In this document: piece by piece, positions 12,173 through 61,382 of the stretch
How positions within the stretch are numbered: the stretch's first letter is position 1
Layout of the letters: the number at the start of each line of letters is the position of its first letter
Assembly (NCBI GenBank): GCA_011056555.1
Contig: DSEQ01000009.1
Location: forward strand, 16,281 to 80,280
Reading direction: 5' to 3'
DNA: 64,000 nt
Origin: Candidatus Zixiibacteriota bacterium
Lineage (GTDB): Bacteria; Zixibacteria; MSB-5A5; JAABVY01
The notes under the pieces: model-generated
What the model saw: the letters and a program-made list of their open reading frames with translations, nothing else
Told to the model about the DNA's origin: nothing
Database searches by the model: none
Made by a program: the position numbers and the translations under genes

Positions 12173-13897
12173 TTACTTCGCGCCTTTTTGCTGAATCCTT
12201 GCCCAGGTATCCCGCAGACCGACAGAACGGTTAAAAACCGGATGATCAGGAGTCGAATCCTCGGAATCCGCAACGAAGTATCCCTGTCGCAAAAATTGGT
12301 AGTATTCCCCCGATTTTGCATCTTTCAATCCCGGCTCGACCTTGCAGCCAGTCAGTATTTCCAGCGAGTCCGGATTGATATTCTTCAAAAAGTCGCCGCC
12401 TTCGGTTGGATCCTCTTTGTCGAATAGACGGTCGAACAATCTGACTTCGGCATCAACAGCATGTTCGGCAGAAACCCAGTGCAACGTGCCCTTCACTCTT
12501 CTTCCATCGGGAGTGCTTCCTCCCCGGGATTCCGGATCATAACTGCAGCGCAATTCCGTAATCTCCCCCGCATCGTTCTTAACAGCCTCATTGCAGGTAA
12601 TGAAGTAGGCATGTTTCAGGCGCACCTCGCGTCCCGGCGCCAGGCGGAAAAACTTCCTGGGCGGATCCTCCAGAAAATCATCCCGCTCTATATATATTTC
12701 ACGCGTGAATACAATAGTCCTGGTTCCGGCGGATTCATCCTCAGGATTATTGACAGCCTCGAACTCCTCTACCTTATCCTCGGGGTAATTCTCGATTACA
12801 ACTTTCAGCGGCCGAAGCACCGCCATCATTCGGACTGCGCGTTTATTCAGGTCCTCGCGCAGGGTATGCTCCAGAAGCGCAATGTCGACCACGCTCTCGC
12901 GCTTGGCCACTCCGATTCTCTCGCAGAATTCACGGATTGACTCGGGCGAGTAGCCCCGGCGCCTGAGACCGGAAATTGTGGGCATGCGCGGATCATCCCA
13001 GCCGCTCACATATTTCTCCTGCACCAGCTGCAGAAGCTTCCGTTTGCTCATAATCGTATAATTCAAGTTCAGACGCGCAAATTCTATCTGACGGGGATGA
13101 TGTACCTCCAGCTGATCCAAAAACCAGTCGTAGAGCGGGCGATGATCTTCGAATTCGAGTGTGCAGATCGAGTGGGTTATGCCCTCGATCGAGTCCGACT
13201 GGCCATGCGCCCAGTCATAGCTGGGATACACGCACCATTTATCTCCCGTACGATGATGCGCGGCATGCTTGATACGGTACATAACCGGATCACGAAGATT
13301 AATATTGCCGGATGCCATATCGATTTTTGCCCGAAGAACCTTGGAACCATCCGGAAAATCGCCATTCTTCATCTTCTCAAATAATTTCAGATTTTCTTCA
13401 ATCGAACGATCCCGGAAGGGACTATTTTTTCCCGGCTCTGTCAGGGTACCGCGATATTCCCTGATTTCCTCGGCATTCAGATCATCAACATACGCCTTGC
13501 CCTCTTTGATAAGCTTGATGGCCCACTCATAGAGCTGCTCGAAGTAGTCCGAGGCATAAAAAAGGCGGTCCTCCCACTTTGCCCCCAGCCATTCAACATC
13601 CTTTATGATCGACTCCACATAGGAGGATTCCTCTTTCAACGGATTTGTATCATCGAACCTGAGATTGAATTTGCCGTTATAATCTTGCGCCAGGCCATAG
13701 TTCAGGCAAATCGACTTGGCATGCCCGATATGCAGCCAGCCGTTGGGCTCGGGCGGAAAACGGGTATGTACGCGGCTGTTATTTTTGCCCTGCTCCAGGT
13801 CCCTGTCGATAATCTCCCTTATGAAATTCGACGGCTTTCCCGGCTTCTCGTTATCATTCTTATTTATCTTATTGTCTTCCATAATATTAATATCCAC
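12173..13897 (-). CDS. glnS: glutaminyl-tRNA synthetase (class I)
   Basis: Segments [18 protein letters not shown] (HIGH motif), NLRFDDTNP and VMSKR-type MSKR; the alignment to bacterial GlnRS is close throughout. Confidence 0.93.
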
Positions 13898-14473: not shown

Positions 14474-15656
14474 TAAAGGTTATTTTGGAGAATACGGCGG
14501 ACGATATGTCCCCGAAATACTTATTGAAATTCTGGATGAAATCACCACAGCATATCTTAACTTAAAGGACCAGAAAGGTTTCAAGGAAGAGCTCTCCTAT
14601 TTATACCGGCATTATGTCGGACGCCCCAGTCCGGTTTTCTATGCTCAAAATCTCTCAGCCAGACTGGGCGGCGCCAAAATCTATCTAAAGCGCGAAGATT
14701 TAAACCATACCGGCGCCCACAAAATCAACCACTGCCTGGGCGAGGCGCTGATTGCCAAAAAGATGGGCAAGAAGAAGATAATCGCCGAAACCGGAGCGGG
14801 ACAACATGGCGTCGCATTGGCAACCGCCGCAGCAATTGTCGGGCTGGAATGCGAAATCTATATGGGCGAGGTGGATATGGCCAAGGAGGCGCCCAATGTC
14901 ACCCGTATGCGTATTCTTGGCACCAATGTCGTGCCGGTCGGATTCGGCCTGAAGACGCTTAAAGAAGCTGTTGATGCCGCCTTTGAGGCTTATATGAAGG
15001 ATCCGGTCGACCAGTTCTATGCCATCGGCTCAGTAGTGGGCCCGCATCCATTTCCAATGATGGTGCGCGATTTCCAGCAGGTTGTGGGCGAGGAGGCTAT
15101 GGTTCAGTTCATGGAGCTGACCGGCAGGCTGCCCGATAATCTGGTGGCATGCGTGGGCGGCGGATCAAACGCCATTGGACTTTTCTCGGCCTTCCTCGAC
15201 GAGGACCGGGTCGAGATGTATGGCGTTGAACCAGCAGGGCTTAGCTTCAAGAAAGGTGAACACGCCGCGACCCTGACCCTGGGTTCTCCGGGGATGATTC
15301 ATGGCTTTAAATGCTATCTTCTGCAGGATGACCAGGGGCGTCCACTCCCGGTCTATTCAATTGCTTCCGGCCTCGATTACCCCGGAGTCGGCCCCCAGCA
15401 CAGCTACCTGAAAGACATCGGGCGGGTGCAGTATAAAACCATTAATGATAAAGAGGCGCTGGATGCCTTCTTTACGCTTTCGAGGGAAGAGGGGATCATT
15501 CCGGCTCTTGAAAGCGCGCATGCCGTTGCTTATGCCATCAAGATGGCTCCCGATCTGGATCAGGATAAGACCATCCTCGTGAACCTCTCCGGAAGAGGGG
15601 ACAAGGATATAGAATATGTGGTTGAAAAATATGGCAAGAAATATGGGATAGCATGA
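14436..15656 (+). CDS. trpB: tryptophan synthase beta chain (standalone, no trpA adjacent)
   Basis: Segments [21 protein letters not shown] (PLP lysine) and GAGQHGVA. An AGGAGGA SD lies upstream. Confidence 0.9.
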
Positions 15657-32054: not shown

Positions 32055-33362
32055 ATGAATAGACCTGAATCATATCATGCTAATACCGTATGGGTTTTTA
32101 TTCTGACGCTCGTCGTTTTTACGGTTGTTTCCGTTCCGGCATTCTGTTACGAGATCGACACAACAAGAGTCCGCGAGAAGCCCGAAGAGAATATAACATT
32201 CGGGGAGGCGGTGCTGGCTGCGCCGTCATTCATCCTGAATCTCCCCTTCTGGGTGCTGAAAAATGTGTCCGATTTCACGGTAAACGAAATCGTCTATTCC
32301 AAACCCATTCAGGCGCTTTTTGCTTTGAAACTCAGGCCAATTTGGGGATTCTACCCCACAGGGGGCTATAATTCCAACGCCGGCGTTAAAGCTGGAATTG
32401 TCTATAGAGTAAAAGATCTTCTCTCGGAGGAGGAGGATTTTAAGGTCAAAGCCTCCTACTCCACCCACGACTACCAGACCTACAGCCTGAGATACAAGAT
32501 CATGCCTCAGAATTCCATATTCAATGAAGTGCATTTCAATTTTAGTTATAGACAGAAGCCCCGCGAAAGCTTTTATGGCATCGGTAACAGGACCTCAGAT
32601 GACAATGAGGTTGCCTTTAACCTCGAAAACGGATTCATGGGCTTCGGCTGGAACCATGAGATTTCCAGTCAGTTCTCAACCGGAGTTGACTTCTCCTACC
32701 GGATACTGAATATCTATGACGGGCAGGACCCATCATTGACCGGCTCTCTCGATTCTATCCAAGCAAAATTCGATCTCAGCGAGGATGAGCTGGCGAATGC
32801 ACGTGTTCTGACTGTGGGCATGAACCTGAAATATGATTGGCGCGACCACCCCGGGCAGACCACATCTGGAGGATACCACGCCCTTGAGCTGTCCTACAAC
32901 AGGGGCAGAGGACAACTTCAAGACCTTGAATATTTCCTGGCTTCGGTTAGTCTATATCAATTCATTCACATTTACAGGCAAAGAGTGCTGGTTCTTAATT
33001 TCCGCACGGAGACCATTGGCAAAACCGATGGATCGCCGGATTTGCCATTTTATCTGAGACCAGCACTGGGTGGTGAAGAGAGTCTGCATGGATATAAGGA
33101 GCATCGCTTCATAGATAATACAACCATGCTGGCGGCGGTAGAATACCGCTTTCCCCTCTTGCAGGGTGTGGACGGCTTATTGTTTTTTGAAGAGGGTAGA
33201 GTTTTTGATGATTTTTCTAAGGATTTCGATCTGAAAAACTGGCATTATTCTACCGGCATCGGTATCAGGTTGTGGGATCAGGAAGGCCTGAGATTAAACG
33301 GCTATGCTGCTTTCAGCAAAGAGAGTCCGCAATTTTACGTGCATTTGTCCGAAACACTCTAA
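32055..33362 (+). CDS. Omp85-family outer-membrane beta-barrel (bacterial surface antigen D15-like, no POTRA domains evident)
   Basis: Signal peptide followed by an alternating amphipathic beta-strand pattern. A loop-6-like motif LGGEESLHGY is present (cf. VRGF/Y of Omp85 proteins). The C-terminal region is aromatic-rich. Confidence 0.55.
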   Translation: MNRPESYHANTVWVFILTLVVFTVVSVPAFCYEIDTTRVREKPEENITFGEAVLAAPSFILNLPFWVLKNVSDFTVNEIVYSKPIQALFALKLRPIWGFYPTGGYNSNAGVKAGIVYRVKDLLSEEEDFKVKASYSTHDYQTYSLRYKIMPQNSIFNEVHFNFSYRQKPRESFYGIGNRTSDDNEVAFNLENGFMGFGWNHEISSQFSTGVDFSYRILNIYDGQDPSLTGSLDSIQAKFDLSEDELANARVLTVGMNLKYDWRDHPGQTTSGGYHALELSYNRGRGQLQDLEYFLASVSLYQFIHIYRQRVLVLNFRTETIGKTDGSPDLPFYLRPALGGEESLHGYKEHRFIDNTTMLAAVEYRFPLLQGVDGLLFFEEGRVFDDFSKDFDLKNWHYSTGIGIRLWDQEGLRLNGYAAFSKESPQFYVHLSETL

Positions 33363-33373
33363 GGATGCACATT

Positions 33374-35086
33374 ATGAAAAATTATATGAAAATATCTTTA
33401 TTGCTGCTGTCACTGATGCTTATGCTGGGTTGCAGCGGCTACAAACCAGTCTTGCAACCGGAGGGTCCCTACTGGGTTGACGACGATAAACAGGATATCC
33501 CGGAACCATCATCCAAGGACCCAAACTTAGCCTGGATGTCCATCAAGCGTTCCAGCTTCGACCAGATTGAAGACGGCCTCGATCTGGAACGGAATTTCAG
33601 GATTCTATCCGATGAGCGTGAAGAAGCGGCCAATATCAACAGTTTCGACGAGGTTCCCAACTGCACCTGGTTCACCAACCGTCATGGTTTCGCACGCATG
33701 ACTCCGGACGAGATCGCCGAAGGAGTCGATCTCACGCCGGGACCGGACACAAGCGGACCATGGCTTGTATTTCGTCCTAAGGTGCAGGGTACCACTCCCG
33801 GTTTCTGGATCGAGGATTCACGGGGAGATCAATATGTCATCAAATTCGACCCGAAGGGGTATCCTGAGATGGCTACGGCGGCGGCCGCCATGGCTTCCCG
33901 ATATTTCCATGCTTGCGGTTATAATGTGCCCCAGGAAACAATTGTATATTATCGTCCCGAAATCCTTCAGGTCAAAGAAGGGGTGAAGTTTGAAGACAAA
34001 GCTGGTGTGAAACGTGAATTCACTCAGCAGGACTTAGAGGATATTCTTAAACGAGTACATCACGAGCCGGACGGGAGAATTCGGTCACTGGCCTCGCTTT
34101 CTCTGGGAATTCATGGTAAAATCAAGGGCCCTTTCAGCTATAGCGGAAGACGGAGCGATGATCCCAATGACTGGTTCGATCACCAGGACAGGCGGGAATT
34201 GCGCGGGCTGTATGTCATCGGATCGTTCATAAATCATTATGACCTGAAGGACCAGAATTCCCTCGATATCTATGTGGAGGAAAACGGAAATAAATTTCTA
34301 AAGCATTTCCTGATCGATTTCGGTTCCACCTTCGGCTCTGACGGCCAGGGGCCAAAGCCGCCTATTAAGGGCTATGCCAATATGATCGATCTTCGTGACG
34401 CCTTCGTATCCCTGATAACTGTCGGCCTCAAGACATGGGACTGGCGGGGAGGTGGCGAGGTAATCTACCCATCCATCGGCTATTTCGAAGCGGATATCTT
34501 TCAGCCCGATAAGTTCGATCCGATCTACCCCAATCCCGCTTTTGAGGACAAAACCGACCGCGACTGCTACTGGGGAGCCAAAATCGTTATGGCATTCCGC
34601 GACAGTGATTTACGCGCCCTGATCGAAACCGGGCAGTATTCCAATCCCCAAGCCGAGGAATATCTGTTCGAAACCCTGAAAAAGCGCCGCGACAAGATTG
34701 GACGATTCTGGTTTTCAAAGGTCAATCCCCTGGATTATTTTGAAACGGAATATGCTGGCAGTGATCTCAGAATCAGGTTCGATGACCTGGGAATCAAATA
34801 CGAGCTCTGGCCCCAAGATGCGGTCTATGACTATGAAATCAGATACGGCAAGGAACTTATCCGCAAGGATCGGGTTAAAACTGGCGAAATAATTCTGACA
34901 CAGGATGATTTAAATCGCATGACCTCGGCATTTAAAGCCACGGATAAAAAAGAGGATTATATTTACAGGATGGATATCAGAACCACCAGAGGGAATGGTG
35001 ATCCGAGCAAGCCAACCCGATTGCATTTCTGGTATCATCATGATGAAAATAAATTCTCATTGGTGGGAGTCGAACATCTGGATTGA
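33374..35086 (+). CDS. lipoprotein with a eukaryotic-like (Hanks-type) protein-kinase-fold core
   Basis: ATG at 33374 with an AAGGA SD. The signal peptide plus lipobox is MKNYMKISLLLLSLMLMLGC. Kinase motifs are YVIKF (Lys codon 33842-33844), HYDLKDQN (34235-34258) and DFG (34316-34324). The ORF-track start at 33272 overlaps the upstream gene and is rejected. Confidence 0.6.
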   Translation: MKNYMKISLLLLSLMLMLGCSGYKPVLQPEGPYWVDDDKQDIPEPSSKDPNLAWMSIKRSSFDQIEDGLDLERNFRILSDEREEAANINSFDEVPNCTWFTNRHGFARMTPDEIAEGVDLTPGPDTSGPWLVFRPKVQGTTPGFWIEDSRGDQYVIKFDPKGYPEMATAAAAMASRYFHACGYNVPQETIVYYRPEILQVKEGVKFEDKAGVKREFTQQDLEDILKRVHHEPDGRIRSLASLSLGIHGKIKGPFSYSGRRSDDPNDWFDHQDRRELRGLYVIGSFINHYDLKDQNSLDIYVEENGNKFLKHFLIDFGSTFGSDGQGPKPPIKGYANMIDLRDAFVSLITVGLKTWDWRGGGEVIYPSIGYFEADIFQPDKFDPIYPNPAFEDKTDRDCYWGAKIVMAFRDSDLRALIETGQYSNPQAEEYLFETLKKRRDKIGRFWFSKVNPLDYFETEYAGSDLRIRFDDLGIKYELWPQDAVYDYEIRYGKELIRKDRVKTGEIILTQDDLNRMTSAFKATDKKEDYIYRMDIRTTRGNGDPSKPTRLHFWYHHDENKFSLVGVEHLD

Positions 35087-35089
35087 TTT

Positions 35090-36319
35090 GTGATCATGAA
35101 GGTAAGTATTTTTATACCCATATCAATTTTATGCCTGTTTCAGGCATTCACATCTCTCCATGCAGAATCCAATGATCCACATGCAATCAGTGGAAGTGAT
35201 TTTGATCATTTAATGAATATCCAGAATGTTGAATTACAGAATAAACTCGAGAATATATTTCCCGAGAGTGAAGGTTATCTGGTAAGCGGACCTCTGTGCG
35301 ACGATACGTTCGAGGACTCTGCGTATTTTTATTGCGGTGCGGTCAGGGTTATTTGCCCAAACCTTAAACTATATAAGCAAGGTATAGACATAGCCGCCGG
35401 CATGGACAGTCTCACTGCAATTACAGATTATCCGGATCCAAGCGGATCATACTATGCCTTTGAAAAATATTATACTTATCATAATGGTAACCTGGTCGAT
35501 ACGTTCAAGTTTGAAACCGCAAATTCCGTTCGGTACGAGCTTGCCTTAAATAAGGAGCTGATATTCAGCCCGCTTCGAAGTGATGTCATCCGCATGCCCG
35601 ATTCAGAACGTAAGGAAATGCATGATTATTTCCTTCAATATGACTCCGGGAATATTCCGGCAGAGCAGCTTTACATACATTACGTACCCTATATCATCGA
35701 GGGCTATCAGAATTACAAAGAGTTCCTTTTAAGTCATGCCGAGATCGATCTCGATTTCATAAGCGGCGTGACCGCCTTTGTACCCACTGAAGAAACTCTG
35801 CAATGGTTCAGGGAGAATGCTCCGCAGGAGGCATATCCCAATAAGGAAGCGTCCAAATTTGAGGAGGAAATTCATGAATTCTTCGAGCGCGGCGGTGATT
35901 TGCGCGTCATCCAGACTTTAACGAAAGAAGGCTTCGACACACTTCAAAGCGGGGAATATTTCTATGCTGTCAGCCCTGCATACAAAATTCGTTTTGGACG
36001 GGAGCTTTTGCGCGAGGAGGTCAAACGTATCGAAGAGGAAACGGGCAAGAAGGTCCCGCGCGCCAATCATGCCTTTTTATTCCCGGGCGAAGCGGTACTG
36101 ACCGCCGGGGCTTTCTGGATAGATACAGACAAGGAAAACAAGCTGGTCAAGGTCAATGCCCAGTCCGGCCATTATTTCTACAGCAATGTTTCCCCGACTA
36201 TCCGCGAGGATATCTCCGAACGTTCCGACCATTACCTGACCACGCTGGGTCATTTTTTCAAGGCCCTTGACAGCCTGCAAATTCCCTGCGATAAGATTCT
36301 CATAAGTAAACTCCAATGA
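35090..36319 (+). CDS. secreted hypothetical protein
   Basis: 409 aa with signal peptide MIMKVSIFIPISILCLFQAFTSLHAE and no recognised domain. The start is 4 nt after the upstream stop. Confidence 0.55.
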   Translation: MIMKVSIFIPISILCLFQAFTSLHAESNDPHAISGSDFDHLMNIQNVELQNKLENIFPESEGYLVSGPLCDDTFEDSAYFYCGAVRVICPNLKLYKQGIDIAAGMDSLTAITDYPDPSGSYYAFEKYYTYHNGNLVDTFKFETANSVRYELALNKELIFSPLRSDVIRMPDSERKEMHDYFLQYDSGNIPAEQLYIHYVPYIIEGYQNYKEFLLSHAEIDLDFISGVTAFVPTEETLQWFRENAPQEAYPNKEASKFEEEIHEFFERGGDLRVIQTLTKEGFDTLQSGEYFYAVSPAYKIRFGRELLREEVKRIEEETGKKVPRANHAFLFPGEAVLTAGAFWIDTDKENKLVKVNAQSGHYFYSNVSPTIREDISERSDHYLTTLGHFFKALDSLQIPCDKILISKLQ

Positions 36320-40986: not shown

Positions 40987-43758
40987 CTATGTTTCAAACC
41001 GCTTAACCACTCTTTCCGCAGTCTCCTTTACCAATGGGTCGGGATCATTTTGAGCGTCGTGGATTAGCTTCCTCATATTCTCGGAAGCATTAGCGGTAAC
41101 ATTATAGATCGCACAACACCTGAGCCAATTATCGTGACCCTTGATAAGGCGCTCCAGGGCTTCCTCCCGGGTACGGGTCTTGACACGGAAAAACTCCTCG
41201 CCTTTGCGAAGCACTGTTTCGACCGGAACATCATCGAGTATCGGGAGAATATATTTCTTTACGTCGCGACTCAGGAGATTATCGAGAAACTCGATAGCAT
41301 TGGCCTGAAGCACCTTTTTGCCGCTCACGAACCCCTGATAGGCATAAAATATGTCTGTGGGAGGATAGACCAGACCCAGGAGCCGGAATATCCGTTCGAG
41401 GTTGTACTGCTGTTTTTCTTCCAGCGCCTTTTTCAGGAGTTTGGAACCCGGTGATTCATCGAATTGCCTGTGGGAATATAGGATCTGGTAAATTTCATAA
41501 TAATCCTTGATTTCATTCAGAAGGACCTGTTCCACCTTCCCATGGTCAAAGCTGAGCTCCGAATAGACGCTTCGCAGGCTGTTCAGGGCTTTGACCACAT
41601 GATATTTCAGGGAGGGTTCCACCTTATCCAGGTTGTCGGTCAAAACATCAACTGTCTCCTGCTCAGGAATCAGCTTCATCACCCTTGGTATATTTTTGCG
41701 AATATTGTAATCGACTGCGCGGTCGTGCAGGTAATCGCTGAGGGTCCCCAGCACGCCTGTTCCGAAATCGGCCAGCGCTTTGCGAACATTTGCGCGCAAA
41801 TCCCTGTCGGTCAATCTCTCGATCAGCCAGGGTATATATTTGCGCCGTTTCAAACGGCCGATGCATTCTATCGCATTTTTCACCACCTCGATCGACTTAT
41901 CATTAAGCAGAATCTCTATGTAGCCGCTGAATTCCGGTTTGTTCACCACGCCCAGAATCCGGGCGACCTGAATACGGCTCAATTCCGCCTCCTCAGATAT
42001 ATCGCGCATGGCCGCCTTTATGAGTTCCTCATCGACCAGCTCCCTTTCCTCCGGACGGCCATAATCGGTAAGATATGCCAGAGCTGCATTGACTATGCGA
42101 GGGTCATCGCTGCGCAGGTATTCCCGCAGTTTTTCCAGAGTATCTCCCTCGGTTCGGGAGCATATGAAGTGCACGGCCTCCGAACGGACCTCAATGTCCT
42201 CATCAGTCAGCATCTTCTCTACTATCTCCATATGCGAGCGGTCGCCATGCTCGAGAAGCACCTTCAGCGCATCGAGCCTGATGTCGGCCGACTCATGCCT
42301 CAAATGAGGAACTACTTTTTCCACCCTCTCAACATTCTTCACCGAACGCAGCATCTCCAGCGCATATCCAATCTGCCGATCATTGGGGCTGTCCAGCGAA
42401 TTTATCAGCGCATTGATGGTGGAGCGGTCATCGATCTGAACGGTGAGCCTGGAATAGTCGATCTCGCGCTTTTCAATGGCTCTGCGGAATGAATTCAGAT
42501 ATTCCTTCCGCATGAAGACAGTCAGGGTTAACCAGATAAGCAGTAATCCAATCACGATCAGACTGATTTCCTTTACCGTCAGATGAAAGACGAGGGTGCA
42601 GAGAAGCAGAAGGGCGCCGGCAAATCCGCGGAACCACCTGTCCACGAACATATCGATAAATATTTTTGTGCGCTTTTTTACCTCCAGCGGTATGGGCAAA
42701 AACAGCAATTCCCTGCCGGTCTTGTCCATAGAATATTTTATACTGCCATCCACTCCCCTCAGCATTATACCGGCAATCAAGCCGGGGAAGAGAAACATCG
42801 CCGCTGAGCCAAGCAATAATCCCGTCGGCAGAAACATAATGATACCGCCCACCCCCAAAAAGCGAATTAGCCTGTATGTAAAAAACAATTGCAGTATTAG
42901 TGAAGCCATGCTGAGCCAGCTGTAGAACTGTCCGAAGAATGATGTCAGATCAGCTTTTTCCGGATAAGCAGCTTTGGATACGGTTTTGAACTGCCAATCC
43001 ACAAATGAAGCCACCATCATGGTTATAGCTATAATACCCACAAGCAATAACAGGTGGCGTGACCTGAAAATCGTCTTTGTAATCTGCCCCAGCTTTTCCC
43101 CGGGGGGCTCGCGATGGCGAGCGGAACGCTGAAGTTCCTTCTCCGAAACAGTCTTCTTCTTCCAGATTACGGCTACCAGTAAAGCTACAATTACGAGCGG
43201 TACCATACAGATAAATAAGAGGTTTTCCGTGCCTACATCCAGGGCCTTGACGAGGAAACTGGTGACCTGTCCACCGGTGAAGGCGCCGATAATCCCCCCC
43301 AGTCCGAGTAATGTGAAGACTCGTTTGGCCTGTGCAGAATTATACACGGCATTGGCCAGAAGCCAGAATTGGGAGGTCGTAAGCACGCCATAGATGCTCA
43401 CCCATGTATAAAATAGATAATAAACCCAGGCGCTGGAGATCTGGACCAGCCAGCGCAGAATAAAAAGATTCACTATAATAATGGCAAGAGTGAAAATAAT
43501 CAGTCGATTCAGCTTCAACGAACGGCTGGCCCTGGAATAAAGTGTAACAACAGGAGCGGTCACCAGGGCGGTGATAATGAAAACAAGCGGGAGCATCTCC
43601 GAACTGACCCTCACCAGAAACAGCGAATCCCTGGCGGGTTTAAGCAGGTAATAGCTCAAAAGGATCAGGTAATAACTGGACAGCATCAGCAGGGTCAGTG
43701 CGATTTCACCCTTCCTGATGTCAAATATCGATTTGAGAAAACTCTTCATCGAATTCAT
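40987..43758 (-). CDS. fusion protein: N-terminal TLC/Npt-like (ATP:ADP antiporter family) 12-TM permease plus C-terminal HEAT-repeat (PBS-lyase-like) domain
   Basis: 923 aa. The N-terminus (ALTLLMLSSYYLILLSYYLLKPARDSLFLV) aligns by eye with the N-terminus of chlamydial/rickettsial nucleotide translocases. The C-terminal ~480 aa carry repeated D..VR..A..AL helical units (DADIRLDALKVL, DEDIEVRSEAVHFI, DKSIEVVKNAIECIG). Confidence 0.7.
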   Translation of the reverse strand: MNSMKSFLKSIFDIRKGEIALTLLMLSSYYLILLSYYLLKPARDSLFLVRVSSEMLPLVFIITALVTAPVVTLYSRASRSLKLNRLIIFTLAIIIVNLFILRWLVQISSAWVYYLFYTWVSIYGVLTTSQFWLLANAVYNSAQAKRVFTLLGLGGIIGAFTGGQVTSFLVKALDVGTENLLFICMVPLVIVALLVAVIWKKKTVSEKELQRSARHREPPGEKLGQITKTIFRSRHLLLLVGIIAITMMVASFVDWQFKTVSKAAYPEKADLTSFFGQFYSWLSMASLILQLFFTYRLIRFLGVGGIIMFLPTGLLLGSAAMFLFPGLIAGIMLRGVDGSIKYSMDKTGRELLFLPIPLEVKKRTKIFIDMFVDRWFRGFAGALLLLCTLVFHLTVKEISLIVIGLLLIWLTLTVFMRKEYLNSFRRAIEKREIDYSRLTVQIDDRSTINALINSLDSPNDRQIGYALEMLRSVKNVERVEKVVPHLRHESADIRLDALKVLLEHGDRSHMEIVEKMLTDEDIEVRSEAVHFICSRTEGDTLEKLREYLRSDDPRIVNAALAYLTDYGRPEERELVDEELIKAAMRDISEEAELSRIQVARILGVVNKPEFSGYIEILLNDKSIEVVKNAIECIGRLKRRKYIPWLIERLTDRDLRANVRKALADFGTGVLGTLSDYLHDRAVDYNIRKNIPRVMKLIPEQETVDVLTDNLDKVEPSLKYHVVKALNSLRSVYSELSFDHGKVEQVLLNEIKDYYEIYQILYSHRQFDESPGSKLLKKALEEKQQYNLERIFRLLGLVYPPTDIFYAYQGFVSGKKVLQANAIEFLDNLLSRDVKKYILPILDDVPVETVLRKGEEFFRVKTRTREEALERLIKGHDNWLRCCAIYNVTANASENMRKLIHDAQNDPDPLVKETAERVVKRFET

Positions 43759-47574: not shown

Positions 47575-48990
47575 GTGAAAAAGTACCTGTCAGTAACATT
47601 GAAACCCATATTTGCACTTGTGGCAATCCTGACCCTGGCGGTCTTTACCGGATGCAGTGACGATGACAACAATAGTTCGGTCGGTCCTGATGACGGCGAT
47701 GAATCTTTCGCCTTTTTATTCGATGATATGATCCAGGCCGGTGACAGCATGAACCTTTCTGCCGATAGCAACTGGCTCGTGAGCGGCTTCGTGTTTGTCG
47801 AGGAAGGCGCCGCATTGTCGATAGAACCGGGCGCGGTCATACGATTTAGGCCGGGTACCGGAGTCAATGCCAGCGCTTTGATAATTGCCCGGGGCGGAAG
47901 GATCTGGGCCAACGGCACGCAGGATAATCCCATCATCTTTACAGCGGAAGTTGACGATGTCAATGATCCCAGCGACCTGGGCCTCTTCGACAACGGTCTC
48001 TGGGGCGGTTTGATCATCCTTGGAAGCGCAACCGTGAATACCCCTACAGGTCTCAGCCAGATCGAAGGCATCCCTTCGGACGAAATTCGCGGCGAATACG
48101 GCGGAAATGACGACAACGACAATTCCGGGTCGCTCCGCTATGTCTCTATCCGTCACGGCGGATCGGAAATCGGGGCTGCCAACGAGATCAACGGTTTGAC
48201 CCTGGGCGGAGTCGGCAGACAGACTGTAATTGAATATGTCGAAATCTACTCCAATTTTGATGATGGTGTGGAATTCTTCGGCGGTGTACCCAGCACCAGG
48301 AACATCGCGGTCGCCTTCTGCGGCGATGACGCTTTTGATTATGATGAAGGGTTCCGCGGCAATGGCCAGTTCTGGTTTGCGGTGCAACATGAAAAAGTCG
48401 GCAACAGGTGCGGCGAGCATGACGGCGCCACAGGCGATGAGCAGGGTACACCCTTTGCTCATCCTATCATCTCCAACGCCACCTACATCGGCTCCGGAAA
48501 CCGCTCCGCCAACAGCGACAACGATTACGCAATCATCATGCGTGATAACGCAGGCGGTGAATATCACAACAGCATCTTCTACGGTTTCCAGGGCTCCGGC
48601 TTGCATGTCGAGGACAAGACCGGCGAAGCGATCGAACACAGCCGTGCCCGGCTTGAGGCCGGCGATATCGTCTTCAATAACAATATCTGGTACAGCTTTG
48701 GCGCAGGCAACACAATGAACGATGTTTTCCAGCAGGAGTTCGTCAGAACCGTTATGGCTCAGCAGGGCTGGACCAACGAAATGGTCGATCCGTTAATCAA
48801 CTCAGTGGCCAGGCTTAATACCGGCGCATTGAATCCGGTGCCCAGTGCATCCGGACCTGCCGCCAATGCGGCTGATCAGCCCGCAGGCGCTTTCTTCCAG
48901 AATGTCAGCTACAAAGGCGCATTTCAGCCCGGTTCTGCAAACTGGCTTAAGGGATGGACGGCCCTGGATCATTACGGGTTCCTGCAATAA
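47575..48990 (+). CDS. cell-surface lipoprotein, Gly/Asn-rich with repeated GG..G/NN motifs (possible beta-helix), receptor-associated
   Basis: GTG start with a GGAGG SD and a lipobox LAVFTGC. Glycine- and asparagine-rich repeats run through the protein. Confidence 0.65.
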   Translation: MKKYLSVTLKPIFALVAILTLAVFTGCSDDDNNSSVGPDDGDESFAFLFDDMIQAGDSMNLSADSNWLVSGFVFVEEGAALSIEPGAVIRFRPGTGVNASALIIARGGRIWANGTQDNPIIFTAEVDDVNDPSDLGLFDNGLWGGLIILGSATVNTPTGLSQIEGIPSDEIRGEYGGNDDNDNSGSLRYVSIRHGGSEIGAANEINGLTLGGVGRQTVIEYVEIYSNFDDGVEFFGGVPSTRNIAVAFCGDDAFDYDEGFRGNGQFWFAVQHEKVGNRCGEHDGATGDEQGTPFAHPIISNATYIGSGNRSANSDNDYAIIMRDNAGGEYHNSIFYGFQGSGLHVEDKTGEAIEHSRARLEAGDIVFNNNIWYSFGAGNTMNDVFQQEFVRTVMAQQGWTNEMVDPLINSVARLNTGALNPVPSASGPAANAADQPAGAFFQNVSYKGAFQPGSANWLKGWTALDHYGFLQ

Positions 48991-54864: not shown

Positions 54865-55506
54865 TTATTTCTTCTTGTTCTTACCCTGACTCTTATTATT
54901 CCTGGCAGGTTCCTGATCTTCGGCATACTTTTCGGTCTTGGACTTGTTCTTTTTGTTCTTCACCTGTGTATTGATTTGAACAAAATTGTGTCCATTGGCG
55001 CGCATCTTGATAACCTCCTCCGGTGCATAGCCATAATGCTCGGAGATAAAGCGCAGGTTGACAAAATTAACGATATCGGCATCGGACAACACTATTTCCC
55101 CCCATTGGCTCTTCTTCTTGTTCTTGTAATGCCCGTAAGCCTTGCCGTAGGGCGGCACAGGCTTGCCCTCCACAGGCACATAGTAAACGCCCGCATTGAG
55201 CCCGAAATGTGCCGTTATCTGCCACCAGGATTTCCCTTCAAGCCGCAGCTGGACAATCAACCCCGGGGAAACTTCCGCTTTTCTCGCCAAAAAGAACACC
55301 ACCGGCATCTCCTCTTCGGGAATCTTGCTGCGTCTGACAACGATTAGTTCTTTCTCAGGCGCTCTATAATGTTCCCCTATTGCCAGATAGAAGCTCTTCA
55401 AACCGTCGTCCCCGATCGAAAGACCGATATCCATATCTGCCGAGCAATCGGCTGAGGGCCAGAACAAACATAGACAAATCACTGCCGGAATTATTAAAGC
55501 TCGCAT
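54865..55506 (-). CDS. secreted hypothetical protein with lysine-rich C-terminal tail
   Basis: ATG at 55506 with a GGAGGAA SD. A signal peptide is followed by a C-terminus rich in K/N (KNKKNKSKTEK ... KNKKK). Confidence 0.5.
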   Translation of the reverse strand: MRALIIPAVICLCLFWPSADCSADMDIGLSIGDDGLKSFYLAIGEHYRAPEKELIVVRRSKIPEEEMPVVFFLARKAEVSPGLIVQLRLEGKSWWQITAHFGLNAGVYYVPVEGKPVPPYGKAYGHYKNKKKSQWGEIVLSDADIVNFVNLRFISEHYGYAPEEVIKMRANGHNFVQINTQVKNKKNKSKTEKYAEDQEPARNNKSQGKNKKK

Positions 55507-55668
55507 ATTTTCCTCCACAATTGCGGTGATACTGCACAATAAAACCGGGTTCTGGAAACCCGTGACACCTACCTTTATATTGTCGGAGGGATTATATCCG
55601 ATTCTTAAGAAAATTAATTTATATTCCCGAGCCCGAAGCCAAACCTGTTGTAATTCAAGCGGATAAAT

Positions 55669-58470: not shown

Positions 58471-58649
58471 AATGTGGGTGAAAATCATAAAAAGAAACCC
58501 ACCGCTAAAGCGGATAGGGCACCCAAGCATTAGAAAAGATACTATTGGAGCGTTTAATATATTGCTATTCAAGTAATGAGATCAATTTATATTTGCTTGC
58601 AAAAAAACGATTTGCGACTATTCTATATAATTAGATGAAAGGAGAAGCG

Positions 58650-59087
58650 ATGGATGTAATTAATCTATTTGCCAAGCTTAATTTAGAAAAAATTGACTTT
58701 GATGGCAGTATAACAGCAACAACACCGGATCAATTCATTGCGCAATTTAAGAAAGTGTGTTCATGTCAGGCATCAAAACACAACCAGTCTATTGTATATG
58801 TATGGCATACAGAGAAAGCAATATCTCGTTTAAGGGGAAAAAGTACAATTGTTTACATTGGTAAAACCGATGCTACATTTTACACAAGACATTATCGCTA
58901 TGCCGAGACGGAGGCTTCAGGTAATAACTGGAAAAGATATAGCTATATCATTAATCAATATGGGGCAATAGGATTTTGTTGTGCGAGAATTCCTTCGCCA
59001 AATACTCCTCTGGAAATAGAAAACAGGTTGCTTCAAAAATATTTCGAGGAACATCTGGAACTACCCCCCATAAACAAAAGCCTATAA
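58650..59087 (+). CDS. small GIY-YIG-like domain protein (putative nuclease) in an AT-rich islet
   Basis: AAAGGAG SD with ATG at 58650. The motif segment is VYVWHTEKAISRLRGKSTIVYIGKTDATFYTRHYRY, with Glu and Asn downstream. Codon usage is visibly AT-richer than in neighbouring genes. Confidence 0.55.
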   Translation: MDVINLFAKLNLEKIDFDGSITATTPDQFIAQFKKVCSCQASKHNQSIVYVWHTEKAISRLRGKSTIVYIGKTDATFYTRHYRYAETEASGNNWKRYSYIINQYGAIGFCCARIPSPNTPLEIENRLLQKYFEEHLELPPINKSL

Positions 59088-59267: not shown

Positions 59268-59297
59268 AGAAAAAAAGCATGATCACAGGGATCATGC
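59268..59297 (-). terminator. rho-independent terminator after the GatE-like gene
   Basis: Stem GCATGATC/GATCATGC (8 bp) flanked by A7 on the plus strand, which is T7 on the minus strand. Confidence 0.7.
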
Positions 59298-59325
59298 CCT
59301 ACAATTAATTCAAATGGGAGTTTTA

Positions 59326-61263
59326 TTACGATGTCGCCGGATGTTTGGCTTTGACTTGCTCTTTGACCATATCCTTGAGCTTTTCCGGGGGGAACTTGCC
59401 GCGGGTTTCTGATTTGACCTGACCAATAATATACTCTATCAGCTTTTCTTCGGATTTGAATCTGTCGCCATCAAGCTCTGCGGCTTTGCTTTCTATTAGA
59501 GAGCTTACATCACTCTCAGTCATCGGTATTAAATTCAATTCATCGAAAAGCCTCTCCAGCGGAATATTCGTGCCATTTGATGAAAGATAATCGAGAGCTA
59601 CATAGACCGCTTCGTTTGGCAATTCACGTTGTCCGGTTTGCTCCAGAATGTAGGCCAGGAGATCATCGGAAATAAATATCAGGTCCCTGCCCTGGCGTTT
59701 CAGATTTTTCAGATAGCCCTCGAAAAGATATGCCAGGAAAACCGGGTCAGTGAGATTGCGCTTCAATAACCGGTCGTACATAAGTGCAAATTTTGAACGT
59801 CCCAGGGAATAGACCAGTTCATCGGACAGCCCCAGTTCCATCCAGCGTTCATCGCGGCTGTAGGCCGGGTCCGGAAGAACCGCCCTGAGCTTATCCAGAC
59901 GATCTTTGGTGATTGCCACCGGCGAGGAATCGGTGTCGGGATACATACGGTCCGGGCCGGGAAGTATCCGTTCGAAATCCGTAATGCCCTCGCCAATATG
60001 CTGACGGGTTTCATTGGGCACGCCCTCGGTCGCCTCCACAGCACGGATCTTCACTTCCGACAGCGCCATGTTGACATCAGCTTCAGTGCCCCAGGTTATA
60101 ATAATCGCATCGGTATGACGCATATGGAAGACCTTTTTAATCTCGTCGCAGATTTCATCCGGCAGTTCGGCACAACTGATATCGTCGGAATGGATGATGT
60201 TCGGATATTTATCGATGCAGGCGATTACCTTAATTCGTCCGGAGATCTCATCGGCAAAGGTCTTATTCGGCTGGGTCTTGTAATTGAGTATGCCCGCAAA
60301 GCGTTCCAGCATGATACCGCCAACCTTGCCGCCATTGTTTATGACCTCGGATATCACCGGATGCGCTATCTTCTTGAAAATCTCGGTCAGGTCCTTCTTC
60401 TCGCTGTGAATTGTACTGGGGGATATTCCGCGTTTGCGCAGTTCTGATTTTATCTCCAGAAGCGATTTTTGCCTTAAACCCTCGACCTCGGTCAGGCGCT
60501 TGATATATCCGGTTTTATCAATGCCCTTGAGCTCCACCCGAGTGCCGCCGTCGATGGAAACATTGACATCCTGACGGGTTACTCCAATCCCGCGCCGTAC
60601 CCGTCCCGATGAGCGCAGCACGCGTCCGATAACCTCATCGACTTCCATCGCCTCGGTCGGAGTTTGCATATCCGGATAGGTCACAATCTCGACCAAAGGA
60701 GTTGAAAGACGATCTGTCCTGAACCTGATCTGATGTCCAATATCGTGCACCTCGCGGCAGGCATCCTCCTCAAGAGCGACTTGAATAATCCTGATTTTGC
60801 GGTCCTTGTATGGTATCCACCCTTCCACACCGACAATGGCGGTGCGCTGGAAGCCTGTGGGGATCGAGCCATCCAGATACTGCTTTCTGGTAATATGAAG
60901 TTCATCCACAATATGGCAGTTGAAGAGCATGGAAATCTGGAGGGCGATATCGAGAGCCTCCTGGTTGATCGGAAAAGGCGGGGTATCATCCATCTCATAG
61001 GTGCAGACATTATCCCGGAAGAGCTCGTAAACCACCTCTTTTTTGGTCTTGAATTCCATCAAGGCGGTGCCGTCATACTCTCCCAGTTCGGAAAGTGTGG
61101 GGCGCATATGTCTTACGATTAAACCGTCGGGAGGACCGTCAACATAACCGACCGGGCAGCGGCAGAACAGCTTTTTGGCGGTATCGAGCTGTTGATGAAC
61201 CTCCAGCCCACACTTGAAGCCAAGCTCTTTGAATCTGCTGTCGTCTAAATTATCCCAGTTCAT
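59326..61263 (-). CDS. GatB/GatE-family tRNA-dependent amidotransferase subunit, GatE-type (archaeal-like, with large insertion)
   Basis: 645 aa. The N-terminus GLEVHQQLDTAKKLFCRCP matches the GatE/GatB start. A cradle motif VTRQDVNVSIDGGTRVELKG is present. A ~160-aa insertion precedes the helical/YqeY-like tail. Confidence 0.65.
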   Translation of the reverse strand: MNWDNLDDSRFKELGFKCGLEVHQQLDTAKKLFCRCPVGYVDGPPDGLIVRHMRPTLSELGEYDGTALMEFKTKKEVVYELFRDNVCTYEMDDTPPFPINQEALDIALQISMLFNCHIVDELHITRKQYLDGSIPTGFQRTAIVGVEGWIPYKDRKIRIIQVALEEDACREVHDIGHQIRFRTDRLSTPLVEIVTYPDMQTPTEAMEVDEVIGRVLRSSGRVRRGIGVTRQDVNVSIDGGTRVELKGIDKTGYIKRLTEVEGLRQKSLLEIKSELRKRGISPSTIHSEKKDLTEIFKKIAHPVISEVINNGGKVGGIMLERFAGILNYKTQPNKTFADEISGRIKVIACIDKYPNIIHSDDISCAELPDEICDEIKKVFHMRHTDAIIITWGTEADVNMALSEVKIRAVEATEGVPNETRQHIGEGITDFERILPGPDRMYPDTDSSPVAITKDRLDKLRAVLPDPAYSRDERWMELGLSDELVYSLGRSKFALMYDRLLKRNLTDPVFLAYLFEGYLKNLKRQGRDLIFISDDLLAYILEQTGQRELPNEAVYVALDYLSSNGTNIPLERLFDELNLIPMTESDVSSLIESKAAELDGDRFKSEEKLIEYIIGQVKSETRGKFPPEKLKDMVKEQVKAKHPATS

Positions 61264-61382
61264 AACTTGTGAAATATATCACTTTAATCTCTCAATATAC
61301 CAAATCTACAGGCCTTGGCAACCGATTTCGTGTTTTTTTTTGATGTTTGACAACACGACCGAAAATGTTATCTTTTGCCCTT

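Follow-up and report, generated by a model that had tools for sequence, protein, structure and literature searches.

A predicted GatDE amidotransferase in a Zixibacteria genome that also encodes GlnRS

The tRNA-dependent amidotransferase GatDE has been described as confined to archaea (PMC2330236, PMC9499178, PMC8007984), and reviews up to 2022 present it as an archaeal signature enzyme. In these reviews the tight fit of GatDE to archaeal tRNA-Gln, with its A1-U72 first base pair, is invoked to account for archaea never having gained a glutaminyl-tRNA synthetase (GlnRS), and the hosts of GatDE are said in the literature to be without GlnRS. We consider here a gatE gene at positions 59326..61263 (minus strand) of a 64,000-nucleotide stretch of contig DSEQ01000009.1 from a Candidatus Zixiibacteriota bacterium; this whole stretch is referred to as the window. 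Both rules are broken, since what by sequence is an intact GatDE stands beside GlnRS in a bacterium. The window protein is an ordinary-looking member of its family in an unexpected domain of life, and the widespread bacterial clade of GatDE to which it belongs is apparently undescribed.

The 645-residue protein starts at an ATG codon and is assigned by NF003107 and TIGR00134 as subunit E of GatDE, a tRNA-dependent kinase and amidotransferase. NF003107 scores 534.1 bits against a cutoff of 456, with residues 9-639 matching model positions 4-626 of 630, and TIGR00134, like it a GatE equivalog model, scores 460.9 bits against a cutoff of 319.55. The GatB equivalog models, for which the cutoffs are 315-680 bits, all give 157 bits at most; the best of them gives 157.3 bits (cutoff 338) and TIGR00133 gives 138.9 (cutoff 314.8). 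The protein aligns over its full length with the GatE chains 1zq1_C and 2d6f_C of the PDB (E ~1e-97); PDB GatB chains align to residues 85-275 only. It is about 165 residues longer than GatB (466-483 residues in the PDB chains). The 277-position Pfam GatB_N model is spread over residues 17-455, revealing an insertion of ~165 residues that aligns with the insertion domain of the two solved GatE chains, the trait that separates GatE from GatB. The original prediction, made from the letters alone, had called this open reading frame (ORF) a GatE rather than a long GatB from an N-terminal motif, GLEVHQQLDTAKKLFCRCP, a cradle motif, VTRQDVNVSIDGGTRVELKG, and an insertion of ~160 residues resembling that of aspartyl-tRNA synthetase (AspRS). 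These observations hold, the motifs being residues 19-37 and 228-247, respectively.

These comparisons show the window protein to be a true GatE, intact, rather than a GatB of unusual length. Every molecular feature of GatE that we examined by sequence is present, namely the model scores, the insertion, the kinase residues, the GatD partner and the placement in the tree. For GatB, the scores lie under the cutoffs, and a protein of 645 residues with the insertion has to be set against a family of ~475 residues without it. Two general statements about GatE do not hold here. The host window is bacterial, but the restriction to archaea is a statement about distribution and no bar to membership; and the host is not without GlnRS, which is encoded 46 kb away in the same window.

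In M. thermautotrophicus GatE the Mg2+-coordinating residues His15, Glu157 and Glu184 are needed for both the kinase and the transamidase activities (PMC2330236). They correspond to His23 (codon 61195-61197), Glu165 (60769-60771) and Glu192 (60688-60690) of the window protein, all on the minus strand with the codons checked, and are invariant in all 87 of the 87 aligned GatE sequences. The kinase site, which the original prediction had left to be checked, is thus conserved and, since all of the catalytic residues are retained, nothing points to a new activity. The three residues lie in the N-terminal catalytic cradle (residues 17-280; 60424..61215, minus strand), which also holds both motifs. 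The core of the AspRS-like (GAD-like) insertion comprises residues 304-401 (60061..60354, minus strand), where the Pfam GAD match has E=0.0015 and is below the gathering score. A C-terminal YqeY-like tail (residues 508-636; 59356..59742, minus strand) matches Pfam GatB_Yqey with 32.5 bits against a cutoff of 27. In the solved GatE structure this tail binds the D-loop of the tRNA (PMC2330236), a role that we infer by analogy for the tail of the window protein.

The partner subunit is encoded elsewhere in the genome. No gatD was found in the window, either with Pfam on all ORFs of at least 380 residues or by BLAST with Zixibacteria GatD. The original prediction was therefore correct that gatD is not adjacent, but it had also implied that the genome lacks the gene, and this does not stand. 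The accession number of one GatD, HEQ97769.1 (P0178), is 597 away from that of GatE, HEQ98366.1, and the two share the label of a third-party annotation (TPA) Zixibacteria metagenome-assembled genome (MAG). P0241, which differs from P0178 at a single one of 461 residues, is present in run SRR5214154, which also contains the exact GatE, and again in a sibling Joint Genome Institute (JGI) sample, on a 470-kb contig. We used P0241, as the 460/461-identical cluster mate of P0178, to compare contig composition. The tetranucleotide correlation of its contig with the window is 0.952, compared with 0.949 between the two halves of the window itself and 0.910 for the next-closest species. On the indirect evidence of accession block, shared run and matching tetranucleotide profile, drawn from MAG and metagenome data, this is the GatD of the same organism as the window GatE.

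Zixibacteria GatD passes TIGR02153 with 524.5 bits (cutoff 324) and carries the asparaginase motifs TGGTIA at residue 104 and HGTDT at residue 181, and also Lys262; at 208 positions it is at least 98% conserved over 126 orthologs. Both subunits, each with an intact active site, are under strong selection for the known chemistry, because the kinase residues of GatE are invariant and GatD is extremely conserved. As a separate observation, the GatD sequences (P0121-P0246) share 65-90% identity in addition to their near-invariant positions, compared with 43-55% for GatE (P0002-P0120) in the same bacterial phyla, so that the two halves of a single enzyme differ strikingly in conservation.

Neighbourhood clustering of 83 related loci leaves gatD as the sole conserved neighbour of gatE. 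It lies within a few kilobases in 58 of them, usually directly downstream and often overlapping. Other neighbours come back in five to nine loci only; these are GlnA, a hibernation factor and, in nine loci, an NtrBC-like pair. The two genes are unlinked in the Zixibacteria subclade of the window (loci L001, L012, L015, L035, L051 and L087), and in L002 gatD is 6 kb from gatE. The missing gatD neighbour is therefore explained by a lineage-specific split of the operon, and the lesson for annotation is that the absence of an adjacent gatD is no proof of a solo gene.

The window itself is bacterial in content, encoding an NuoCD fusion, NuoF, NuoG, a TonB-dependent receptor and an outer-membrane β-barrel protein. 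Two deposited proteins, HDS01838.1 and HEQ98366.1, have exactly this GatE sequence and come from MAGs named 'candidate division Zixibacteria bacterium'; at least five independent assemblies contain the gene with its neighbours unchanged. The GC content of gatE and its GC content at third codon positions (GC3) are 0.504 and 0.587, compared with 0.506 and 0.590 for glnS and 0.491 and 0.592 for nadE. The composition of gatE is fully ameliorated, and signs of recent transfer or chimerism are absent. Recent horizontal transfer and mis-assembly were both considered and rejected on the independent assemblies and the resemblance of gatE in composition to housekeeping genes.

The subtype is widespread. 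We scanned one genome per GTDB species with two clade-specific peptides, which matched at least 600 stretches, and found the subtype in at least 587 species-representative genomes, all confirmed relatives. Among the best 80 of these at least 587 loci, 78 are labelled as bacterial and two as archaea with names beginning Thermoplasmat-; the taxon labels are those of the MAGs, and some are doubtful. The bacterial labels among the best 80 include Ignavibacteria, Kapabacteria, Melioribacteraceae, Zixibacteria, Aminicenantes, Caldisericia, WOR-3, KSB1, Fermentibacteria, Phycisphaerae and Rhodothermaceae. Closed bacterial chromosomes are represented by CP070742.1 (Zixibacteria), CP070718.1 (Phycisphaerales) and OY762428.1 (Kapabacteria). 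The Thermoplasmatales members are truly archaeal, as seen from TBP and Trm56 encoded on the contig. One label may be in doubt: L092 (CP070751.1, 3717581-3739518) is on a closed 5.16-Mb chromosome named 'Thermoplasmata archaeon', which is very large for Thermoplasmata. Its gatD-glnA pair is divergent from gatE, and its flank encodes TatA/TatC, HypF, NikR and PadR, with no diagnostic archaeal marker seen there. Since at least 587 species carry the subtype and the GC and GC3 of gatE equal those of glnS and nadE, the transfer is neither a one-off event nor specific to the window genome.

The origin of the clade was addressed with a GatB-rooted neighbour-joining tree of 145 sequences and 200 bootstraps. 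A search of 1.84 billion proteins supplied 121 of these as representatives at 50% identity; 21 more were labelled GatE sequences, comprising locus sequences, the window protein and the two PDB references, and the other three were GatB fragments. The method is a distance method and the GatB outgroup spans only ~190 columns; the canonical GatE sequences in it are unlabelled and are taken as archaeal since they group with the two references. The bacterial and Thermoplasmatales sequences form a monophyletic clade in 171 of the 200 bootstraps, and the bacteria are monophyletic without Thermoplasmatales in 107. The clade lies inside canonical GatE in 194 bootstraps and is sister to all canonical GatE in only five; the position within bacterial GatB that would have refuted the original prediction was not found. 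Because the clade nests in this way, the tree speaks for its ancient origin in archaea, although it leaves the donor unfixed. The acquisition from archaea suggested by the original prediction thus agrees with the tree as to origin, but a recent or genome-specific transfer does not agree with the distribution.

The second rule concerns GlnRS. The glnS gene of the window (12173..13897, minus strand) encodes a class I GlnRS of 574 residues that scores 758 bits with TIGR00440 (cutoff 426), as bona fide as originally predicted. Its orthologs are 70-89% identical in many Zixibacteria MAGs, and one of them is on the same 927,514-bp contig as GatE; this contig, the window's own, was the only one to match when the GlnRS and GatE hit lists were compared by length of longest contig. 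The best NCBIfam model for the protein, at 899 bits, is NF011291 ('glutamine--tRNA ligase/YqeY domain fusion protein'). The 574 residues cover only positions 11-561 of 769 in this model, so the window GlnRS is without the YqeY domain. The name 'GlnRS/YqeY fusion' given by the Prokaryotic Genome Annotation Pipeline (PGAP) is misleading for it, and the NCBI label 'fusion protein' on Zixibacteria GlnRS orthologs of 559-586 residues appears to be a systematic misnaming.

Judging from sequence and context, we think that the window GatE is probably the E subunit of a complete bacterial GatDE that carries out transamidation of Glu-tRNA(Gln) alongside GlnRS. This role is favoured because it is with the Glu/Gln system that gatE is associated in the genomes of relatives. 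In the archaeal loci L093 and L094 a tRNA-Gln(CUG) with A1-U72 begins 30 nt past the gatE stop codon. On the closed Zixibacteria chromosome of L001, gatE, gltX and a tRNA-Gln(CUG) with U1-A72 and G73 fall within 5 kb, the gltX is of the bacterial type (TIGR00464, 549 bits) and a tRNA-Glu gene lies 3 kb upstream. A tRNA-Glu gene is also found upstream of gatE in L013 (~5 kb) and L033 (~170 nt), and glnA is within a few kilobases of gatE in five loci and in L092. As a separate observation, folding the L001 tRNA-Gln(CUG) (15041-15114, plus strand) by hand (5' UGGGGGA / 3' CACCCCA) gave two apparent mismatches, G6-A67 and A7-C66, where its acceptor stem has its base.

Our model follows the known chemistry. 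GatE would bind mischarged Glu-tRNA(Gln), reading the acceptor end and the D-loop and leaving the anticodon unread, and would phosphorylate the γ-carboxyl group with ATP at the Mg2+ site formed by His23, Glu165 and Glu192. The acyl-phosphate would then be amidated by GatE with ammonia that the asparaginase-like GatD frees from Gln or Asn and that passes through an intersubunit tunnel. The clade, of archaeal origin, would have spread long ago through many bacterial phyla, and the ancestral gatE-gatD pair would have been split in the Zixibacteria subclade, where gatE now appears to be monocistronic and to have a promoter-like site and a terminator to itself. The substrate in the window organism and the reason for coexistence with GlnRS we infer. 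Where a putative non-discriminating glutamyl-tRNA synthetase (GluRS) makes Glu-tRNA(Gln), GatDE may remove it or convert it, and the enzyme may be isoacceptor-specific, both of the linked tRNA-Gln genes observed being CUG.

Several points weigh against such a role. GlnRS is present and conserved in Zixibacteria, and for this reason a Glu-tRNA(Gln) amidotransferase seems dispensable. The sole Zixibacteria tRNA-Gln read, that of L001, comes from a species other than that of the window and carries U1-A72. The characterised archaeal GatDE recognises A1-U72 (PMC2330236), so that recognition by the bacterial enzyme must differ or be relaxed. Finally, the tRNA and gltX linkages are few and come from relatives rather than from the window genome.

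It is possible, although we think it improbable, that Asp-tRNA(Asn) is the main or an additional substrate of GatDE, which would then fill the role that GatCAB keeps in GlnRS-containing bacteria. In Deinococcus, Thermus and Bdellovibrio, GatCAB beside GlnRS gives Asn-tRNA(Asn), often as the only route of the cell to asparagine, and bacterial tRNA-Gln and tRNA-Asn both carry U1-A72. This base pair is the determinant recognised by bacterial GatCAB (PMC2330236). A GatE adapted to U1-A72 might accept both tRNAs, U1-A72 having been observed here only in the L001 tRNA-Gln. The presence of GlnRS argues in the same direction, since the Gln pathway then needs no amidotransferase, and there is a precedent in the retention of GatCAB beside GlnRS for Asn-tRNA(Asn) (PMC4206432). 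As very weak further support, no GatB paralog was found by phmmer in all of the flanks of the GatDE loci (~1.5 Mb), a search of flanks only that is uninformative for whole genomes. On the other side, all of the linkages found belong to the Glu/Gln system (tRNA-Gln, gltX, glnA and tRNA-Glu), and no linkage of gatE to aspS, asnS or tRNA-Asn was seen in the loci examined. The archaeal members of the clade adjoin tRNA-Gln, and characterised GatDE rejects Asp-tRNA(Asn) (PMC2330236).

A bolder and more doubtful proposal is that GatDE has replaced GatCAB in such GlnRS-containing bacteria and acts on U1-A72 Asp-tRNA(Asn), either alone or together with Glu-tRNA(Gln). If this were true, GatDE would have a substrate range never shown for it, and the argument that tight co-evolution of GatDE with archaeal tRNA-Gln bars its coexistence with GlnRS would be overturned.

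The original prediction had preferred a solo GatE that had been repurposed. Such a protein, having lost GatD, might for instance serve by itself as a tRNA-dependent kinase or draw ammonia from a different partner. The window by itself invites this idea, being without gatD and showing a monocistronic gatE with its own terminator and promoter-like site. We nevertheless regard it as very unlikely: a GatD differing from the NCBI MAG copy at one of 461 residues occurs in the same run on a contig of matching composition, purifying selection on GatD is extreme throughout the clade, Zixibacteria with gatD away from gatE still carry it, as at 6 kb in L002, and the catalytic residues of GatE are unchanged. 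The archaea-only view in the literature (PMC2330236, PMC9499178, PMC8007984) would also lead one to suspect an artefact, in which a piece of archaeal DNA had entered a bacterial MAG by chimeric assembly or mis-binning. This has a negligible chance of being the explanation, since gatE is flanked by bacterial genes in the contiguous 64 kb of the window, assemblies of at least five samples gave this arrangement independently, the GC and GC3 of gatE are equal to those of the housekeeping genes nearby and the closed bacterial chromosomes CP070742.1, CP070718.1 and OY762428.1 carry the subtype.

The coexistence seen here raises the question of what purpose is served by a second route to Gln-tRNA, or by a GatDE-based route to Asn-tRNA, and also whether the bacterial phyla that bear GatDE are without GatCAB. 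The GatE subtype is found together with a U1-A72 tRNA-Gln in a related Zixibacteria genome, and the strictness of first-base-pair recognition becomes testable. Our search of the literature available to us found no paper on a bacterial GatDE, and the genome paper on Melioribacter makes no mention of it. The NCBI pipeline already annotates bacterial proteins as GatE and as GatD; the genes are known to the databases and apparently undiscussed in print.

The immediate surroundings of gatE are compact. A terminator-like hairpin followed by a T-run lies 26 nt past the stop codon (59274..59300, minus strand), with 11 pairs, four of them G-C, a loop of 5 and then TTTTCTTGTG; this is the terminator of the original prediction, its minus-strand stem reading from 59300 to 59274. 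Upstream, a σ70-like promoter match (TTGCCA, 16 nt, TATATT, with an extended TG) occurs at 61294..61321 (minus strand) with 10 of 12 consensus matches; it is a consensus match only, as the upstream region holds five promoter-like matches against a shuffle expectation of 4.5. Between 61264 and 61346 is an 83-bp gap from which gatE diverges from nadE, the gene for glutamine-dependent NAD+ synthetase (NF010588, 729 bits). The gatE/nadE synteny is present in the 90%-identical species of L012 and absent in more distant relatives. Of the neighbours originally named, nadE is correct, whereas the 'GIY-YIG islet' has no family match: we rejected the GIY-YIG label for the 150-residue ORF at 58635-59087, which has no Pfam match even at E<=10 and no NCBIfam match.

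Elsewhere in the window, Rfam and tRNA scans gave no matches. The 923-residue protein at 40987-43758 (minus strand) weakly matches the AAA/TLC NTP/NDP exchange transporter superfamily (TIGR00769, 56 bits, residues 100-420) and has HEAT-like repeats after the transporter part, with NblB-like matches at 475-667; such a nucleotide-transporter-like fusion is unusual for a presumably free-living bacterium. Three successive large ORFs at 32055-36319 (plus strand; 435, 604 and 409 residues) match no Pfam family at E<=1e-5, and the 471-residue ORF at 47575-48990 has no NCBIfam match. The 224-residue protein at 54865-55539 (minus strand) has a signal-peptide-like N-terminus, a very Lys/Asn-rich C-terminal tail (KNKKNKSKTEK...GKNKKK) and no meaningful family match.

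Of the known systems, the archaeal GatE enzymes of M. thermautotrophicus (PDB 2d6f) and P. abyssi (1zq1) share with the window protein the cradle, the AspRS-like insertion, a helical region and the YqeY tail. The kinase triad of His, Glu and Glu is identical, and the asparaginase-like GatD partner keeps the TGGTIA and HGTDT motifs. Identity to these references is 33-35%, and at 37 positions, most of them in the catalytic cradle, the clade is at least 95% conserved and unlike both references. The setting also differs, in that the host is a bacterium with GlnRS, gatD is unlinked in the window lineage and the one Zixibacteria tRNA-Gln, in L001, is U1-A72, G73.

The closest archaeal relatives are the GatDE of Thermoplasmatales or Thermoplasmatota (L014, L016, L093 and L094), with 51-55% identity to the window GatE. 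They belong to the same clade and have its specific residues in common, and their gatD is within ~1.6 kb of gatE on the opposite strand. They differ from the window in being from genuine archaea, with an A1-U72 tRNA-Gln 30 nt downstream of gatE.

Bacterial GatB has a paralogous cradle and YqeY tail, the same kinase and amidation chemistry and a setting that is also bacterial. It is without the ~165-residue insertion and partners the amidase-family GatA through GatC, whereas the partner of the window GatE is the asparaginase-like GatD.

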